Part shown: positions 2,854 to 33,792 of the stretch, piece by piece
Layout of the letters: each line of letters starts with the position of its first letter
Position numbering within the stretch: the first letter of the stretch is position 1
DNA from: a virus
Lineage: Duplodnaviria; Heunggongvirae; Uroviricota; Caudoviricetes
DNA: 35,368 bases
IMG/VR virus record: IMGVR_UViG_2740892269_000014
Direction: 5' to 3' (one strand)
Program-made: the position numbers and the translations under genes
The notes under the pieces: generated by a model
What the model saw: the letters and a program-made list of their open reading frames with translations, nothing else
Told to the model about the DNA's origin: nothing
Database searches by the model: none

Positions 2854-3612
2854 TCACTTTCCTTTGATGCGAATGCCAGCGGCACGGGAATCATTCCATC
2901 GCTTTACTTCTTCACGAATTACGTCAATGCATTCTTTCGAATCCATTAGGTAATCTTCATCAAAAAGCCTTTCCTGTTCGTTTTCTATCGCAACAATGAT
3001 TGCTTCAACTAACTTTTGTGCCTGAGAACCACTTTCTAACTCTGCAATGCGCTTCTCTGCGGCTTCCAGCTTCTCGCGCATATCGTCAACGTACTCGACC
3101 AGAGATCCGCCAGCAGGAATTTCGCACTCCTCGACCAGTTGGAAGTAGATATCAGCTGCGGCCCGTGTGTTGCTATGCCTAGCGTCGCCCATCTCACCTT
3201 CACGAAGAGCATCGCGTTCGGCGGTAAGATTGGCTATTTTGCTGTCTTTGCCTTCAAGCTCAACGCGCAGCTTCCCTACCGTTAGCGCAATATCCTCGTT
3301 CTCCTGGTCACGGCGTTTGATGTATTGCTGGTTTCTTTCCCGTTCATCCAGCAGCGCCTGCACTACTTCAGGGTTGAAAGCTGCGATATAACGAGCGTTG
3401 TTCTCTGCGTTGTTCTGTCCATCAAAGCCGGTCCATTTGATAACGTCTTCACATCGTTTATCACCAGGTGTATGCACCGCATATGTACCAGTACCAGACG
3501 AAATAAATGCGACCCATTCACCCTGTGTTGCCAGTTGCGCCGCTTTACGCAGTGCCTGATAGTCAATCTTGCTCACTGGTTGCCTCCTTTGCGGATCTGC
3601 GCTGCGATGCAC
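2854..3612 (-). CDS. Ea22-like early protein (start uncertain)
   Basis: Coiled-coil-rich ORF with C-terminal motif DSKECIDVIREEVKRWNDS, recalled from lambdoid Ea22-like proteins; N-terminus may start at the internal VSKIDYQALRKAAQ. Confidence 0.45.
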   Translation of the reverse strand: MHRSADPQRRQPVSKIDYQALRKAAQLATQGEWVAFISSGTGTYAVHTPGDKRCEDVIKWTGFDGQNNAENNARYIAAFNPEVVQALLDERERNQQYIKRRDQENEDIALTVGKLRVELEGKDSKIANLTAERDALREGEMGDARHSNTRAAADIYFQLVEECEIPAGGSLVEYVDDMREKLEAAEKRIAELESGSQAQKLVEAIIVAIENEQERLFDEDYLMDSKECIDVIREEVKRWNDSRAAGIRIKGK

Positions 3613-4894: not shown

Positions 4895-5021
4895 TTTGTT
4901 CTCCACGTATATGCGCTGCACCGCGCTGAATTCTGGTAAAAGGAAGCCCTCACCATCCGGTGATTATTGAGTTAATTACGTTTCCATAAATGCCCCCGCA
5001 GGGGCATTTGCAGTAATGAAA

Positions 5022-5911: not shown

Positions 5912-6274
5912 TTAATGACCTGCTGCGCGGAGTTTTCCGTCAGGCTCACCGGCAAGAGTCAGTAATTGTCCCTGGTCTTCCTGCAGAATAGTCAGGCGAC
6001 CACCGCGATTGACATACATCGGCGTTTCGGTGGTGTCTTCTTCGGAAATTTTCCCGCGGTTAGTCGGGCGAACATATGAGAGTTTGTGTTTGATTTTCAC
6101 ACGGTTCTCATCAAACGGTTCGATTTCCAGGTTGAGCGAGACCTTACCTTTGGTTTTCGTGTTCATCACACCGGAAGCGACTTCACTGAGAACTGCGCCG
6201 ATTTTGGTTTCAAATACGCCGCCGTCCAGCTCCCCGATAAATGCCTGCACATCAGTACTGCGTTCGCTAGCCAT
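5912..6274 (-). CDS. hypothetical early protein (first gene of the leftward operon)
   Basis: Start at ATG 6272-6274 (MASERSTDVQ...) with GAGGAG RBS 6 nt upstream; 120 aa. Confidence 0.5.
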   Translation of the reverse strand: MASERSTDVQAFIGELDGGVFETKIGAVLSEVASGVMNTKTKGKVSLNLEIEPFDENRVKIKHKLSYVRPTNRGKISEEDTTETPMYVNRGGRLTILQEDQGQLLTLAGEPDGKLRAAGH

Positions 6275-6880
6275 TTGCTGCTCCTCATCATATCGACCCT
6301 GCAAGGTCGGTTGGTTTCTCCACAAAACAGAGAAGAACACCTGCGGTGCAGCCGCCCGGATGGATTGGGTTATGAGCCCGTCGTCCGGTGATGCTCTTCT
6401 CTGTTTTGTAAAAAGAGCGGTACCAGCCGGAAGCAAGTGTACAAACTGGTACCGCCAAAGCAGTGGCTGTTGTGGTGGGGTTGTCACTCAGGCGTATGGT
6501 CAACCTGACAATCCGGTGTCCTCAACGGGGAAAGAGTAACCCCGCCATACTTACCGCCGCGCCATTTCGCGGATTACCACAACGCTGAGAGCACTTAGCC
6601 AGTTACGGCACCACACTTTGTCGCGGTTCCATAAATGCCATCATCGTTGCACCCTGGTCTCTTCCCAGGCGTCAAACCGAATCGCCACGCTGGTTAGGCG
6701 TCTTATCAGCATCCTCATTGACTTGCACATTCCGGCTACCTGGTTTGTTTGCCCGAGCAAGGAGTGGATTGTCCCCTTTAACGTCCCCAGACCGCTAACG
6801 ACGCATGTGCCATACGCCGTGTTACAACCAAATTTTGTCAGGACCTTGTTTGTTGGTCTGGAAAGAAAGATAAAATGAAA

Positions 6881-6918
6881 TTGCGTAACGTGCAAGTATT
6901 TTATTGCGAGACATGCAA
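6881..6918. promoter_or_regulatory. candidate left operator pair with overlapping pL-like promoter
   Basis: Two 15-mers, TTGCGTAACGTGCAA (6881-6895) and TTGCGAGACATGCAA (6904-6918), share the TTGCG-N5-xGCAA pattern with the 15-mer in the cI-cro intergenic region; minus-strand -35 TTGCAC and -10 TATCTT lie around 6867-6895. Confidence 0.35.
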
Positions 6919-6931
6919 TAGCGTGAGTAAT

Positions 6932-6952
6932 GAAAAGCCACCTTCTGGTGGC
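6932..6952 (-). terminator. intrinsic terminator downstream of the repressor gene
   Basis: gccacc-ttct-ggtggc hairpin followed on the minus strand by TTTTC. Confidence 0.5.
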
Positions 6953-6974
6953 TAATTGATGTTGAGGTAGGGGG

Positions 6975-7667
6975 TTAATTGTGTCGCTTAAGGGTTTGTG
7001 ACTGACTGATTAAGACCTTTCCAAAGACCATAAACCGGTGTTCGTTTTCGCTGGTAATTCCCCATTCGCGGTAAATCTGATTATCAGAAATTACCAGCAG
7101 TTTATCAGGTATCATTTGCAGTCGTTTGACGTAAATTTTATCATCAAAACCAAATACATATATACCATCCCCATCAAACTGATTGATACTGATATCAACG
7201 AAGATGAGATCTCCTGGCTCAATGGTTGGACACATACTGTCCCCACGAACGTTGATAACTTTAATGTGATTTGCTGGTCGTCCACCAAACATCGATACAG
7301 CATTATCAGTTCTGTATTCAATGGCATGAATCACATCAATGACATCACCGCCCTGGATAAGGCCATTTCCCGCACTGGCACTGACATCCAGCATTTCAAT
7401 ACGGAATACATCCTTCACCTGCGCAACATCCTCACTAATACTGTTTTTACATACAGTATTACTTTTGAGGTCTGAGGTAAAGAGATCAGCAATATCAACA
7501 CCTAAGCTCCTGGCAATATTACTCAGGGCTTGTTCAGTGAATTGTTTCTGCTTACCTGTTTCGAGGCGCGAGATATTCGCCGCATCCACTCCTATTGCTT
7601 CAGCGAGATCGGCGATTTTCATGTTCTTCGCCTGGCGAAGTTGTCTGACTCGATTTCCTATGTTCAT
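6975..7667 (-). CDS. CI-like prophage repressor (HTH-XRE plus S24 LexA-like peptidase domain)
   Basis: N-terminal HTH (RVRQLRQAKNMKIADLAEAIGVDAANISRLE) and C-terminal S24 motifs (GDSMCPTI...KRLQ); divergent from the cro-like gene. Confidence 0.8.
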   Translation of the reverse strand: MNIGNRVRQLRQAKNMKIADLAEAIGVDAANISRLETGKQKQFTEQALSNIARSLGVDIADLFTSDLKSNTVCKNSISEDVAQVKDVFRIEMLDVSASAGNGLIQGGDVIDVIHAIEYRTDNAVSMFGGRPANHIKVINVRGDSMCPTIEPGDLIFVDISINQFDGDGIYVFGFDDKIYVKRLQMIPDKLLVISDNQIYREWGITSENEHRFMVFGKVLISQSQTLKRHN

Positions 7668-7764
7668 GCGTTTATTACATTTCTTTATTGCGCGTTAAGC
7701 AAATCAACTTGCGCAAAATATTTGCGTGAAATAATATGCTCATCACGCAATATGTGGAGGTTAT
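7668..7764. promoter_or_regulatory. immunity-region operator/promoter (oR, pR, pRM-like)
   Basis: Repeated TTGCG/CGCAA half-sites: TTGCGCGTTAAGCAA 7688-7702, palindrome TTGCGCAA 7709-7716, TTGCGTGA 7722-7729 and TCACGCAA 7743-7750. Candidate pR is -35 TTGCGC (7709-7714), 17-nt spacer, -10 TAATAT (7732-7737); GGAGG RBS at 7756-7760. Confidence 0.5.
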
Positions 7765-8025
7765 ATGCAATCACCATTACGGAATGTGCGTAAGGCGCAC
7801 GGATTTACTTTGCAGCATGTTGCTGCGGGCGTTCAGGTCAATCCAGCGACGCTGAGTCGTATTGAAAGACTGGAACAAATTCCATCTATCGATCTTGCAG
7901 AACGTCTGGCCAATTTTTTTAAGGGTGAAATCAGCGAAATGCAGATTCTTTATCCGGCACGTTTTCAATCTAGCCAAAACCAGAATGGGTTTAAACCACA
8001 GGAACAGGAGGTAAGCCGTGGGTAA
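7765..8025 (+). CDS. Cro-like HTH regulator
   Basis: 86-aa ORF with an HTH-XRE motif (FTLQHVAAGVQVNPATLSRIER), first gene of the rightward operon. Confidence 0.65.
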   Translation: MQSPLRNVRKAHGFTLQHVAAGVQVNPATLSRIERLEQIPSIDLAERLANFFKGEISEMQILYPARFQSSQNQNGFKPQEQEVSRG

Positions 8026-8569
8026 GCATCATTGGAAAGTGGAAAAACAACCCGAGTGGTACGTGAAAGCTGTCAGAAAAACTATCGCGGCATTGCCTGG
8101 GGGTTACGCTGAAGCTGCTGACTGGCTGGATGTAACAGAGAACGCTTTATTCAACCGCCTTCGTGCAGATGGCGATCAGATTTTCCCGCTGGGATGGGCA
8201 ATGGTTTTACAGCGTGCTGGTGGCACTCACTTCATTGCTGACGCTGTGGCGCAGTCTGCAAATGGCGTCTTTGTGTCTCTTCCTGACGTCGAGGATGTGG
8301 ACAACGCCGATATCAACCAACGCCTGCTGGAAGTCATTGAACAGATCGGCAGTTATTCAAAACAGATTCGTTCAGCAATTGAAGACGGTGTAGTGGAACC
8401 GCATGAGAAGACAGCAATTAATGATGAATTGTATCTGTCAATTTCGAAGCTCCAGGAGCATGCGGCACTGGTCTACAAAATTTTCTGCGCTCCAGAAAAG
8501 AGTGACGCCCGCGAGTGTGCAGCTCCGGGCGTCGTGGCGTTTTGTGTCTGTGGAGAAACTAACGCATGA
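8018..8569 (+). CDS. CII-like / YdaT-family regulatory protein (putative)
   Basis: 183-aa ORF immediately after the cro-like gene with an 8-nt overlap; position and size fit CII functional analogues; identity is from memory. Confidence 0.4.
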   Translation: MGKHHWKVEKQPEWYVKAVRKTIAALPGGYAEAADWLDVTENALFNRLRADGDQIFPLGWAMVLQRAGGTHFIADAVAQSANGVFVSLPDVEDVDNADINQRLLEVIEQIGSYSKQIRSAIEDGVVEPHEKTAINDELYLSISKLQEHAALVYKIFCAPEKSDARECAAPGVVAFCVCGETNA

Positions 8570-8714
8570 ACAGTTTAACGGCAAATAACCGTTTGTCGCA
8601 ACAGCTGGTGGTCAGTGTCGCTGCACACCTGTTGTTACGGCATGAATGCAGATTACCAAATCACCTGGCTGTAAGTAACCACAGAGAACTTTACCTGACT
8701 GTGGGGGGCGAGTT

Positions 8715-8894
8715 GTGCAGGAACTTAACCGCTGGTTTCGTGACGGAAGAGGACTTTATGTTCATGTTATTCGTTGGGAGCCAGAAACACAGCGCGTTAT
8801 CTATCTTCGCAAAGACTACCCGCATGAGTGCTTTAGTCCTTTGTGGAAATTCAGGCGTGATTTTGTTGAGTGTGAAGGACCACCAGCACATTGA
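8715..8894 (+). CDS. possible small protein (59 aa, GTG start)
   Basis: Frame-0 ORF reading VQELNRWFRDGRGLYVHVIRWEPETQRVIYLRKDYPHECF...; G-rich stretch upstream; below the ORF-track cutoff; uncertain. Confidence 0.25.
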   Translation: MQELNRWFRDGRGLYVHVIRWEPETQRVIYLRKDYPHECFSPLWKFRRDFVECEGPPAH

Positions 8895-9168
8895 TTCTGC
8901 CATTCCGGGACGTTACACTGTTCAGGCACCTTATAAAGCGGGTGCCGGGATTGGCGTCCTGGAATTGCATACGGCGACAATTGGCGCGTTAGCGTCTTTT
9001 TTGTTGCTACAACTCAGCTATACCCAAATTATGGTGGGCTGGGTGGGGGCACCGAAAGGTGCGCCGGTTTCCGTATGCGCCGGTTACGCCAACCCTGCTC
9101 AGTTCACCACCAGCGAAATTGGCGTTTCCGGTGGTGGAAGTTATCCATTGCATACGGAGGCTGCCATC

Positions 9169-9714
9169 ATGGCTACGATCCCTGCCTTAGTTCAACCTGA
9201 ACTTTGCATTATTGCAGACAAAGTTGTTACTTCTTCTCTGGCTGTTGCTAGTTATTTCGGCAAACAACACAAAAACGTCATTCAAAAAATTGCGTCTCTT
9301 GAATGCTCTGCCGAATTTACTGAGCTGAATTTCCAGCTCAGTGAGTACATCGACGCATCAGGCCGCAAACTACCTTGCTATCAAATAACCCGCGACGGCT
9401 TTGCGTTTCTTGCTATGGGTTTCACGGGTAAACGTGCTGCCCAGTTCAAAGAGGCATACATCAATGCCTTTAACCAGATGGAGAAACAGCTTTCAAAGCC
9501 CGCTGTACCGAGCGACGTTGCACATAACGCCAGCGTTCTCTGTTCCTACATTTCATCAATTCATCAGGTCTGGCTGCAGCAGCTTTATCCTATGTTGGCA
9601 AAAGCCGAATCTCCGCTGGCTGTTAGCTTATATGACTATATTAATGATGCTTCGGCGCTGGCCTGCCTCATAAATTTGTCGCTGAACCCTTCAGAGGTAA
9701 GGGGGCGCAAATGA
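9169..9714 (+). CDS. Rha-family phage regulatory protein
   Basis: Start at MATIPALVQ with GGAGG RBS (9156-9160); Rha-like motif VVTSSLAVASYFGKQHKNVIQKI. The upstream part of ORF 8566..9714 is judged non-coding. Confidence 0.6.
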   Translation: MATIPALVQPELCIIADKVVTSSLAVASYFGKQHKNVIQKIASLECSAEFTELNFQLSEYIDASGRKLPCYQITRDGFAFLAMGFTGKRAAQFKEAYINAFNQMEKQLSKPAVPSDVAHNASVLCSYISSIHQVWLQQLYPMLAKAESPLAVSLYDYINDASALACLINLSLNPSEVRGRK

Positions 9715-24408: not shown

Positions 24409-26392
24409 CCGCAGTACACCGACGACCAGTCCGAAGAATAATTCCTGGTTCAGGATGCAGGCTGGTCACCAGAGTGACGCGGATATTTATATTTATGACG
24501 AGATTGGTTTCTGGGGTGTTACAGCGAAGCAGTTTATCAGTGATCTGAATGCACTGGGCGATATCACCCACATTAATCTCCATATCAATTCACCGGGTGG
24601 CGATGTCTTTGAAGGCATCGCCATTTTTAATGCGCTGAAAACACATGGTGCGTCCATTACCGTTTATGTCGACGGTGTGGCGGCATCAATGGCGTCGGTC
24701 ATTGCGATGGTGGGAAACCCGGTCATTATGCCGGAAANNNNNNNNNNNNNNNNNNNNNNNNNNNNNNNNNNNNNNNNNNNNNNNNNNNNNNNNNNNNNNN
24801 NNNNNNNNNNNNNNNNNNNNNNNNNNNNNNNNNNNNNNNNNNNNNNNNNNNNNNNNNNNNNNNNNNNNNNNNNNNNNNNNNNNNNNNNNNNNNNNNNNNN
24901 NNNNNNNNNNNNNNNNNNNNNNNNNNNNNNNNNNNNNNNNNNNNNNNNNNNNNNNNNNNNNNNNNNNNNNAAACGTACAGAGGAATTTAAAAAGATGCCG
25001 GAATCCATTCGAAACATGATTACTCCGCCACGCAACAGTGCTCCACGCGTACAGGATAATGAACCTGCAGCTTCCCGGACGCCAGTGCAGGCAGCAGCAC
25101 CCGTGGTGGATGAAAACAGTATCCGTGCGCAGGTACTGGCAGAGCAAAAAGCGCGTGTAAACGGTATTAATGATCTGTTTGCCATGTTTGGCGGGCGTTA
25201 TCAGACGCTGCAGGCTCAGTGTCTTGCCGATCCTGAATGTTCGCTGGAGCAGGCCCGCGAAAAGCTGTTGAACGAGATGGGGCGCGAGTCCACGCCATCC
25301 AATAAAAATACCCCGGCTCATATTTATGCCGGTAACGGTAATTTTGTGGGGGACGGGATCCGCCAGGCGCTGATGGCGCGTGCCGGATTTGAAAAAACCG
25401 AACGTGATAATGTCTACAACGGGATGACCCTGCGTGAATATGCCCGTATGTCACTGACTGAACGGGGTATTGGGGTTTCCAGTTATAACCCGATGCAGAT
25501 GGTCGGTGCGGCGTTCACACACAGTACGTCTGACTTCGGTAATATTCTGCTGGATGTTGCGAACAAAGCCATTCTGCAGGGCTGGGAAGATGCCCCTGAA
25601 ACCTATGAACAGTGGACGCGGAAAGGTCAGTTGTCTGATTTTAAAATTGCCCATCGTGTGGGTATGGGGGGCTTCAGTGCTCTGCGTCAGGTGCGTGAAG
25701 GGGCGGAATATAAATACGTCACCACCGGAGATAAACAGGCCACTATTGCACTGGCGACCTATGGCGAGCTGTTCAGTATCACCCGTCAGGCCATTATCAA
25801 TGATGATCTGAATATGCTGACCGATGTCCCGATGAAACTGGGCCGTGCGGCGAAATCCACCATTGCCGATCTGGTTTATGCCATTCTGACGTCTAACCCG
25901 AAAATCTCCACAGATAATGTAAGTCTGTTCGATAAAGCGAAACATGCAAACGTACTGGAGAGCGCTGCAATGGACGTGGCATCGCTGGATAAAGCCCGCC
26001 AGTTGATGCGCGTTCAGAAAGAGGGTGAGCGTCATCTGAATATTCGTCCTGCGTTCGTACTGGTACCGACGGCGATGGAGTCTGTTGCTAACCAGGTCAT
26101 TCGCTCCTCAAGTGTCAAGGGGGCTGACATTAACGCCGGTATTATTAACCCGGTGAAAGATTTTGCGACCGTTATTGCAGAGCCTCGTCTTGATGATAAC
26201 AGCCAGACCACCTTCTACCTGGCTGCGTCCAAAGGCTCCGATACGATTGAAGTGGCTTATCTCAACGGTGTGGATACGCCATATATTGATCAGATGGAGG
26301 GCTTCAGTGTGGATGGCGTGACAACGAAAGTGCGTATTGACGCCGGTGTCGCGCCAGTTGATCACCGCGGTCTGGTGAAATGTACGGCGTAA
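24386..26392 (+). CDS. tripartite capsid precursor (ClpP-like prohead protease, scaffold, major capsid protein), interrupted by an N run
   Basis: GTG start at 24386 with AAGGAGG RBS (24374-24380); ClpP-like N-terminal domain (HINLHINSPGGDVFEGIAIFNALK...ASMASVIAM); capsid-sized C-terminal domain; frame continuity across the N block is not meaningful. Confidence 0.6.
   Translation: MPQRNDSSRSTPTTSPKNNSWFRMQAGHQSDADIYIYDEIGFWGVTAKQFISDLNALGDITHINLHINSPGGDVFEGIAIFNALKTHGASITVYVDGVAASMASVIAMVGNPVIMPEXXXXXXXXXXXXXXXXXXXXXXXXXXXXXXXXXXXXXXXXXXXXXXXXXXXXXXXXXXXXXXXXXXXXXXXXXXXXXXKRTEEFKKMPESIRNMITPPRNSAPRVQDNEPAASRTPVQAAAPVVDENSIRAQVLAEQKARVNGINDLFAMFGGRYQTLQAQCLADPECSLEQAREKLLNEMGRESTPSNKNTPAHIYAGNGNFVGDGIRQALMARAGFEKTERDNVYNGMTLREYARMSLTERGIGVSSYNPMQMVGAAFTHSTSDFGNILLDVANKAILQGWEDAPETYEQWTRKGQLSDFKIAHRVGMGGFSALRQVREGAEYKYVTTGDKQATIALATYGELFSITRQAIINDDLNMLTDVPMKLGRAAKSTIADLVYAILTSNPKISTDNVSLFDKAKHANVLESAAMDVASLDKARQLMRVQKEGERHLNIRPAFVLVPTAMESVANQVIRSSSVKGADINAGIINPVKDFATVIAEPRLDDNSQTTFYLAASKGSDTIEVAYLNGVDTPYIDQMEGFSVDGVTTKVRIDAGVAPVDHRGLVKCTA
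24738..24970. other. N run (gap or masked sequence), 233 nt, inside the capsid gene
   Basis: Contiguous n characters. Confidence 1.
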
Positions 26393-33093: not shown

Positions 33094-33792
33094 GTGCAGG
33101 ATATTCCACAGGAAACACATCATGAGACGACACTCCTCACTCAGTCAGCCCAGGTGGTGCTCTGGGAAATCGATCTGACAGAGGTCGGTGGTGAACGTTA
33201 TTTTTTCTGTAATGAGCAGAACGAAAAAGGTGAGCCGGTTACCTGGCAGGGGCGGCAGTATCAGGCATACCCCATTCAGGGGACGGGATTTGAACTGAAC
33301 GGCAAGGGCAGTGCTGCCCGTCCGACACTGACGGTTTCTAACCTGCACGGCATGGTCACGGGGATGGCGGAAGACCTGCAGAGTCTGGTCGGCGGAACGG
33401 TGGTCAGGCGTAAGGTTTACGCCCGTTTTCTGGATGCGGTGAACTTCGTCAACGGAAACAGCGACGCCGATCCGGAGCAGGAGGTGATCAGCCGCTGGCG
33501 CATAGAGCAGTGCAGCGAACTGAGTGCGGTCAGTGCCTCCTTTGTGTTGTCCACACCGACGGAAACGGATGGCGCTGTTTTTCCGGGACGTATCATGCTG
33601 GCCAACACCTGCACCTGGACCTATCGCGGTGATGAGTGCGGTTATGATGGCCCGGCGGTCGCGGATGAATATGACCAGCCAACGTCCGATATCACGAAGG
33701 ATAAGTGCAGCAAATGCCTGAGTGGTTGCAAGTTCCGCAATAACGTCGGCAACTTTGGCGGCTTCCTTTCCATTAACAAACTTTCGCAGTAA
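33094..33792 (+). CDS. L: minor tail protein L
   Basis: GTG start with AGGAGG RBS; 232 aa, near-identical to lambda gpL over most of its length as recalled (VVLWEIDLTEVGGERYFFCNEQNEKGEPVTWQGRQYQ...). Confidence 0.9.
   Translation: MQDIPQETHHETTLLTQSAQVVLWEIDLTEVGGERYFFCNEQNEKGEPVTWQGRQYQAYPIQGTGFELNGKGSAARPTLTVSNLHGMVTGMAEDLQSLVGGTVVRRKVYARFLDAVNFVNGNSDADPEQEVISRWRIEQCSELSAVSASFVLSTPTETDGAVFPGRIMLANTCTWTYRGDECGYDGPAVADEYDQPTSDITKDKCSKCLSGCKFRNNVGNFGGFLSINKLSQ

Follow-up and report, generated by a model that had tools for sequence, protein, structure and literature searches.

The window, a stretch of 35,368 nucleotides, is a lambdoid prophage of Escherichia coli of the SfV/SfII/mEp460/cdtI type, and the region of interest is the 700-bp interval (6275-6974) between its repressor and its early-left genes. 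The cI-like repressor, with S24 and HTH domains (Pfam), is encoded at 6975-7667 on the minus strand, and a terminator scan placed the Rho-independent terminator of its gene at 6936-6953 (minus strand), as a 7-bp stem with five GC pairs followed by TTTCATT. The rightward genes are cro (7765-8025) and a CII-like gene (8018-8569; phrog_101). On the left, the first early gene occupies 5912-6274 (minus strand; phrog_204, function unknown), and a DUF2303/YfdQ-like gene comes next. As in the preliminary description, this first gene bounds the leader; its ATG lies at 6274 and not at 6275. The last part of the leader (6275-6311, minus strand) consists of a small hairpin (6311-6292), which a terminator-like scan lists on the plus strand, and the Shine-Dalgarno sequence GAGGAG, before the start codon at 6274-6272.

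In BLAST comparisons, all 700 bp are matched by PhiR40_1 with 97% identity and by mEp460 with about 89% (88.8%), and several E. coli chromosomes carry identical copies. Of 5426 complete E. coli genomes, 4738 match some part of the 700-bp query and 996 carry at least 80% of it.

The operator-like 15-mers that had been noted earlier are present where they were placed, as the direct repeat D2 (6880-6895 and 6903-6918). Both match ATTGC-N7-GCAA exactly, forming 17-mers of the type ATTGC-N7-GCAA(T) at 6880-6896 and 6903-6919 that are labelled OL, and another exact copy of the motif stands at 7687, between cI and cro, so that the operator label is reasonable. A further exact palindromic match, ATTGCGGAACTTGCAAT, lies at 33725-33741, remote from the immunity region. 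A putative PL, read from the sequence on the minus strand (6867-6895), has the -35 element TTGCAC (6895-6890), a 17-nt spacer, the -10 element TATCTT (6872-6867) and a start at about 6860, and it overlaps the proximal operator OL1; a stricter promoter consensus scan does not list it. From this promoter the untranslated leader would be about 585 nt long, in agreement with the earlier estimate of about 590 nt.

RNA modules of the leader

The whole leader folds at -228.6 kcal/mol, against -201.2 +/- 5.2 kcal/mol for shuffled sequences (z = -5.3, from 20 shuffles only). It is a chain of independently conserved, covarying RNA modules on the minus strand, which follow each other from 5' to 3' as A-core, linker, boxA-like junction, module B, DicF-like hairpin and long hairpin. 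A covariance and structure search among related prophages, which the preliminary description had proposed as a check, found compensatory base changes in these modules.

The A-core (6649-6822, minus strand) is a 174-nt multi-helix RNA supported by alignment A5, RNAalifold and the covariance model R3. Its helices are stem I (10 bp, GCA loop), a long-range helix and two hairpins with the loops UUCACCA and GAAGAGA, and it contains the conserved strand GGUAGCCGGAAUGUGCAAG. Among the 24 diverse copies in A5, 91.3% of the cells are paired, compared with 30-42% when the partners are slid; 15 pairs have changed on both sides, and none of 500 shuffles was as good. RNAalifold found 13 of 31 pairs to be compensatory. 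It also pairs the invariant stem-I loop GCACAU with AUGUGC, which could be a pseudoknot; this predicted pairing is beyond the reach of covariation. Two conserved G-U pairs (U32-G90 in 24/24 copies and U9-G19 in 23/24) would be A-C mismatches on the opposite strand, which places the RNA on the minus strand.

The R3 model has a single match in the window (137.8 bits) and also matches mEp460, TL-2011b and P1 (between trnI and ban); in Qin-type loci it has none. The A-core 18-mer GTAGCCGGAATGTGCAAG, whose invariance is built into the search, was found in more than 120 viral contigs and in 27 species-representative genomes, nearly all of them Enterobacteriaceae (Kosakonia, Citrobacter, Klebsiella, Enterobacter, Kluyvera, Phytobacter and Erwinia among other genera). 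The A-core is located upstream of tRNA-Arg in epsilon15-like phages and upstream of ban in P1, and directly after an equivalent PL-like promoter in two other loci (L139 and L164). Each of A-core and module B is found without the other. Complementarities between the 5' end of the A-core and module B, GGCGUAUGG/CCAUACGCC and GGUUGUAAC/GUGACAACC (repeats I10 and I12), were rejected as a conserved feature, both being unconserved by eye in P1 and L199.

The linker (6597-6648, minus strand) carries the hairpin GGAACCGC-GACAAA-GUGGUGCC, in which alignment A3 shows a compensatory change (ACCGC/GUGGU in the window vs GCCGC/GUGGC in TL-2011b). It is followed by the junction motif AAGUGCUCUCAGC (6584-6596, minus strand), identified by its recurrence at module boundaries in 64 sequence variants across loci; one locus may contain it several times. 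The family consensus is AGUGC[U/G]CUYYYN, then GUUGUGG. The boxA element reads UGCUCUUUA in rrn operons and CGCUCUUA in lambda (PMC2724277), and the junction resembles both in holding UGCUCU(C/U)(A/U). After the motif comes a G/U-rich strand, here GUUGUGG, that forms a stem around a stable RNA, an arrangement also seen in rrn leaders. The window copy, UGCUCUCA at 6593-6586 (minus strand), departs from the boxA consensus, its relatives read UGCUCUUU, and binding of NusB/NusE is putative here; unlike the lambda nut site, the leader contains no boxB-N pair. Three loci have instead an exact or one-mismatch GCTCTTTAACAA (as RNA, GCUCUUUAACAA) downstream of the A-core, for which the background is 1.2% of random 420-nt windows, counted at up to two mismatches.

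Module B (6469-6583, minus strand) is a 115-nt pseudoknotted cassette defined by identity to Qin, alignment A4 and the covariance model R1. Its closing stem GUUGUGGU/ACCACAAC encloses two hairpins, one of them CCGCG/CGCGG and the other variable, as well as two crossing stems, GUAUGG/CCAUAC and GGAUUGUCA/UGACAACCC. The R1 model finds one match in the window, at 144.6 bits. Across the 26 sequences of A4, 91.5% of the cells are paired, vs 34-52% with slid partners, and eight pairs have changed on both sides. In P1, GUAUGG/CCAUAC is replaced by GCAUGG/CCAUGC, and UUGUCA/UGACAA by UUGCCA/UGGCAA. Since the divergence of module B is modest and the P1 changes represent one lineage, the support is good and not overwhelming, and the low divergence also means that several pairs never vary. 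Folded by itself, in a calculation that leaves out pseudoknots, module B has an ordinary minimum free energy (z = 0.06).

Module B is the most widespread piece of the leader; the commonest match in E. coli covers 6477-6583 with 92-93.5% identity. It is about 93% identical to the segment directly 5' of DicF in the Qin prophage, and in a K-12-type genome (L006) module B (2501-2607) and DicF (2424-2475) lie on the same strand between ydfC and dicB. In P1 and P7, it begins about 45 nt after the C1-controlled promoter Pban and a terminator comes next. Salmonella phage F1055 and a phage recorded from Actinobacillus have copies as well.

The site of module B accepts other RNAs. In the epsilon15-like phages TL-2011b and phiv142-3, a genuine tRNA-Arg(UCU) comes after the A-core and the junction, precisely in the slot of module B; module B has only this slot and the acceptor-like stem in common with the tRNA-Arg of TL-2011b. 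In phiv142-3 (L005), the tRNA-Arg(tct) at 2928-3004 is annotated on the strand opposite to the ARAGORN and Rfam calls, probably an error in the deposited annotation. In mEp460 a different RNA of about 130 nt stands between the same closing-stem strands, and several more cassette types are seen elsewhere. Among 123 distinct A-core contexts, the junction motif follows within 700 nt in 97, a tRNA T-loop in 26 and module B in 21.

The alternative cassette of mEp460 (L001, about 3150-3290), present also in L139, L175 and L194, has GUUGUGGU/CACCACAAC as its closing stem and contains two hairpins with the complementary loops GCUGAU/AUCAGC, which co-change to GCUAAU/AUUAGC in L194. This suggests a loop-loop pseudoknot in another unnamed RNA.

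None of the leader modules was matched by the 4227 models of Rfam 15, either at the gathering score or at E<=10, when the window and its sub-regions were searched, and an Rfam search of seven related loci gave no match to the modules. In a literature search not including Łobocka (2004) and Faubladier and Bouché (1994), neither module A nor module B was found described. Both appear to be widespread, unclassified structured RNA modules.

Relation to the dicF locus

The preliminary description had reported a 10-bp and a 15-bp perfect inverted repeat in the leader as generic structure. Both repeats are present and the structure is real, but each has a more specific identity, the first as a terminator hairpin and the second as a long, processing-type hairpin. 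The 10-bp repeat (6417-6426/6446-6455; I5, 10 nt, 100% complementary) belongs to the DicF-like sRNA/terminator hairpin UUUGGCGGUACCAG-loop-CUGGUACCGCUCUUUUU (6410-6459, minus strand), which was recognized by alignment with the 3' half of DicF. In 81 of 82 distinct contexts, module B is followed by a hairpin with a U-run, at a stability of -10 kcal/mol or better (median -22 kcal/mol), and a GGCGG...CCGCC hairpin with a U-run is present in 43 of the 123 A-core contexts. The stems of the DicF-like hairpin are conserved and covary (for example GGUGG/CCACC in L036), and its loops are very variable. Module B and the terminator hairpin are a unit common to the window, Qin (where the hairpin is DicF), P1/P7 and many prophages.

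The 15-bp repeat (6322-6336/6395-6409) is the outer part of the longer repeat I1 (6322-6346 with 6385-6409), which is 84% complementary over 25 nt, with the outer 15 nt perfect. According to its fold and conservation, this segment (6322-6409, minus strand) is a long hairpin whose outer stem has 21 bp and which contains two inner hairpins; it is kept in 22 variants, of which L042 shows a compensatory change, and is a candidate RNase III site.

DicF is among the oldest known bacterial sRNAs. The window resembles the dicF locus of Qin (ydfABC-dicF-dicB) in having a repressor-controlled early-left operon, the upstream element, a Rho-independent GGCGG...CCGCC hairpin with its U-run at the equivalent place, and a long inverted repeat between the hairpin unit and the next gene, as Qin has one between DicF and dicB. 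Unlike in Qin, where the unit comes after three ORFs, it is found here in the 5' leader after the A-core, and the downstream gene is unrelated to dicB. At the level of the sRNA the two differ. The Rfam DicF model (RF00039), which scores Qin DicF at 76.7 bits, has no match in the window at E<=10, even when 111 nt alone are searched. The DicF 5' seed UUUCUGGUGA is missing from the window hairpin and the loop also differs (alignment A1); any sRNA made here would therefore have other targets or none. A crude duplex-energy test against the ftsZ start region gave no discrimination, even for DicF itself, so that targeting of ftsZ was dropped as a line of argument. The locus is homologous to dicF, and the putative window sRNA itself is no DicF member by the Rfam model or by the seed.

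A second relative is the "dicF-like region" in the ban leader of P1 (GenBank NC_005856), where module B and a terminator likewise stand straight after a repressor-controlled promoter and the A-core is also present. In P1, unlike in the window, the two modules are 2.3 kb apart and in reversed order (B first), with tRNAs and tci genes between them. Just upstream of ban and after the A-core, P1 (L010) carries AUUUUCUGGUGAUGAC at about 4970-4985, which contains the DicF seed UUUCUGGUGA; the "dicF-like region" 2.3 kb upstream of it is without this seed.

The reading that we favour, and consider probable, is that the leader is a processed, non-coding, multi-module RNA of the dicF type, namely the SfV/mEp460-type version of the Qin dicF locus, which is transcribed from the repressor-controlled PL, yields an sRNA and attenuates early-left transcription. 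Upon loss of the repressor, RNA polymerase would transcribe the leader from PL, and the intrinsic terminator at 6459-6410 would stop many transcripts, attenuating early-left expression and making the 3' end of the sRNA. By analogy with DicF, an endonuclease cut just downstream of the tRNA-like module B may give the 5' end of a 3'-terminal, Hfq-type sRNA, module B may be cleaved on its 5' side by RNase P, and in read-through RNA a cut by RNase III in the 21-bp stem may detach the early-left mRNA from the leader. The long untranslated RNA is probably shielded from Rho by its compact folds and the boxA-like junction. For DicF, RNase E makes the 5' end, and the 3' end results from termination or from RNase III cleavage of read-through RNA, in the account of Faubladier (1990) as cited by PMC5069750; binding by Hfq and processing by RNase E and RNase III are known as well (PMC5069750). 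Hfq binding and enzymatic processing of the leader RNA are inferred from this parallel. Of the options offered in the preliminary description, a prophage small RNA or structured leader is the one supported, through the homology to the dicF locus in Qin and the compensatory base changes in the modules. The locus is an apparently undescribed version of the dicF-type prophage RNA locus.

The genes downstream of the modules differ among loci, comprising the phrog_204 protein in the window, a 115-aa protein in TL-2011b, ban, rdgC and dicB, and the two small proteins (phrog_204 and the 115-aa protein of TL-2011b) are unrelated. As these genes are mutually unrelated, a leader serving as regulator of a single protein family was discarded.

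The element just upstream of DicF is conserved more than DicF itself, yet it has had neither name nor model. Most E. coli genomes carry module B, as do P1/P7 and numerous prophages, and the A-core is spread to a similar extent among the prophages of Enterobacteriaceae. Two questions would become testable: how lambdoid phages without N carry polymerase through an untranslated, terminator-containing leader of 590 nt, and why a tRNA, a pseudoknot RNA and other cassettes interchange at one site. In practice, leader regions now annotated as hypothetical proteins warrant RNA modelling.

Alternative explanations

The C4 antisense RNA of P1/P7 and the CI RNA of P4 are cut from early leaders by RNase P. 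Like module B, they are stable RNAs that lie in an early phage leader and are bounded by an acceptor-like closing stem. Module B differs from them in having no Rfam match to the C4 clan and no demonstrated conserved complementary target repeats.

An alternative that we regard as possible, though rather doubtful, is that the leader is mainly a device for processive antitermination, put-like in function and not in family, in which the A-core and/or module B bind the elongation complex, the junction recruits NusB/NusE and terminators are passed without N. No N-like gene was found, yet an intrinsic terminator stands between PL and the genes, and the promoter-proximal positions of module B in P1/P7 and of the A-core in L139 and L164 are consistent with such a device, as are the boxA-like junction (PMC2724277) and the three loci with GCTCTTTAACAA. 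Against it, the window's own boxA-like sequence is imperfect, the two modules occur independently, module B in Qin lies about 1 kb from the promoter behind three ORFs, and the PR side holds no second copy, A-core and module B each being present once in the window. The leader of mEp460 is closely similar (see above), and this phage presumably belongs to the mEp collection, to judge from its name and origin. The mEp phages were isolated as Nus-dependent (PMC11893012). The combination hints that Nus factors matter for this type of leader; Q-dependent late antitermination could also explain the dependence.

The suggestion of the preliminary description that the leader might be HK022 put-like fails as a statement of family membership. 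The hallmark of put RNA is factor-independent passage of terminators, which mutations in the beta' zinc-binding domain of RNA polymerase block. A put covariance model (R2) derived from five putL sequences detects putL (97-105 bits) and the putR elements of HK022 and phiEt88 (about 35 bits), but it gives no match at E<=10 in the window, mEp460, TL-2011b, F1055, Qin or P1, and with filters off it gives the leader just 1-2.5 bits. BLAST of putL against phages found no match in mEp460-type leaders. The leader shares with HK022 put its site just downstream of PL in a lambdoid phage without N, and the strings ACGGCG...CAUGCGUCG in stem I of the A-core and GCGCGGCGG in module B. It differs in that stem I of the A-core is a simple 10-bp hairpin, whereas stem I of put has a triplex (PMC9378689), in the size of the modules (174 and 115 nt vs about 70 nt) and in lacking a copy on the PR side. 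A weak put-model match (8.8 bits, E = 0.04 in a 2.5-kb search) lies at 8568-8642 on the plus strand, just after the CII-like gene; since it is far below the roughly 35 bits of genuine putR, it is probably due to chance.

A broader formulation, which we put forward tentatively as a less likely possibility, holds that the A-core (about 170 nt) and module B (about 110 nt) are two new phage RNA families that either form, with the boxA-like junction, an RNA-based early antitermination/anti-Rho system of N-less lambdoids and P1, unrelated in sequence to HK022 put, or mark a site for tRNA-like decoy cassettes. If an antitermination or decoy reading were true, the DicF sRNA would be the mere tail of a larger functional RNA unit.

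Taken alone, the decoy idea is improbable. It holds that the cassettes of the slot (module B, the mEp460 type and tRNA-Arg) are tRNA-like decoys or replacements against host defences that target tRNA, expressed first after induction, the remaining leader being a scaffold for expression and processing. The acceptor-like closing stem of module B (7-8 bp, stacked on a 9-bp stem), its position exactly at that of a real tRNA-Arg(UCU), the T-arm-like fragments upstream of it in F1055 and the promoter-proximal place in the early operon would fit. ARAGORN and the Rfam tRNA model nevertheless fail on module B, which has no anticodon-like 7-nt loop and in most copies no CCA end, and no defence system is linked to it. 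In the window as a whole, ARAGORN called no tRNA and Rfam gave no tRNA match. The T-arm-like hairpins CUGGUUCGAUUCCAG are located just upstream of the junction and module B in F1055 (L004), and also in L159, and ARAGORN calls no tRNA there.

A role of module B as the sensing part of a riboswitch or attenuator, controlling the downstream terminator through a ligand or factor, is similarly unlikely. The position of module B in a 5' leader, its compact pseudoknotted domain with near-invariant loops and the almost constant presence of an intrinsic terminator next to it recall such a sensor, but the distance and sequence of the terminator vary widely, the P1 terminator is unrelated in sequence, no conserved alternative pairing was seen between module B and the terminator, a tRNA can fill the slot instead, and Rfam has no matching riboswitch class.

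That the region is a present or recent protein gene, either a decayed N-like gene, as had been considered earlier, or an unannotated small protein, is scarcely credible: hypothetical proteins are annotated here in some phage records, leader ORFs of 71-86 aa exist and the plus-strand ORF 6012-6539 matches phrog_3651 (unknown function), but none of the leader ORFs has a Pfam match, no leader or arginine-rich ORF matches an N-like antiterminator family in Pfam or PHROGs, indels of 1, 2, 4 and 5 nt break the frame inside conserved segments (A4), and substitutions compensate RNA pairing, on which selection is visible. The absence of a credible leader ORF had already been proposed, and the feature is real and non-coding. 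The ORF 6012-6539 is antisense to the well-supported first early-left gene over its first half and then crosses the RNA modules. Because it is antisense to a real gene and the indels are not multiples of three, the phrog_3651 match is taken as an annotation artefact, and the family itself seems to derive from ORFs mis-called over conserved RNA.

Elsewhere in the window, the translation of the ORF 24645-25019 contains a run of X, so that the bases at about 24.7-25.0 kb are seemingly ambiguous or masked. In the rightward operon, Rfam identifies an isrK RNA at 8926-9002 (plus strand, 61.2 bits) and a C4 antisense RNA at 9027-9114 (plus strand, 80.7 bits). Both lie inside a 382-aa ORF (8566-9714), the same pair is present in mEp460 and F1055, and the whole resembles an immI-like control region for an antirepressor.
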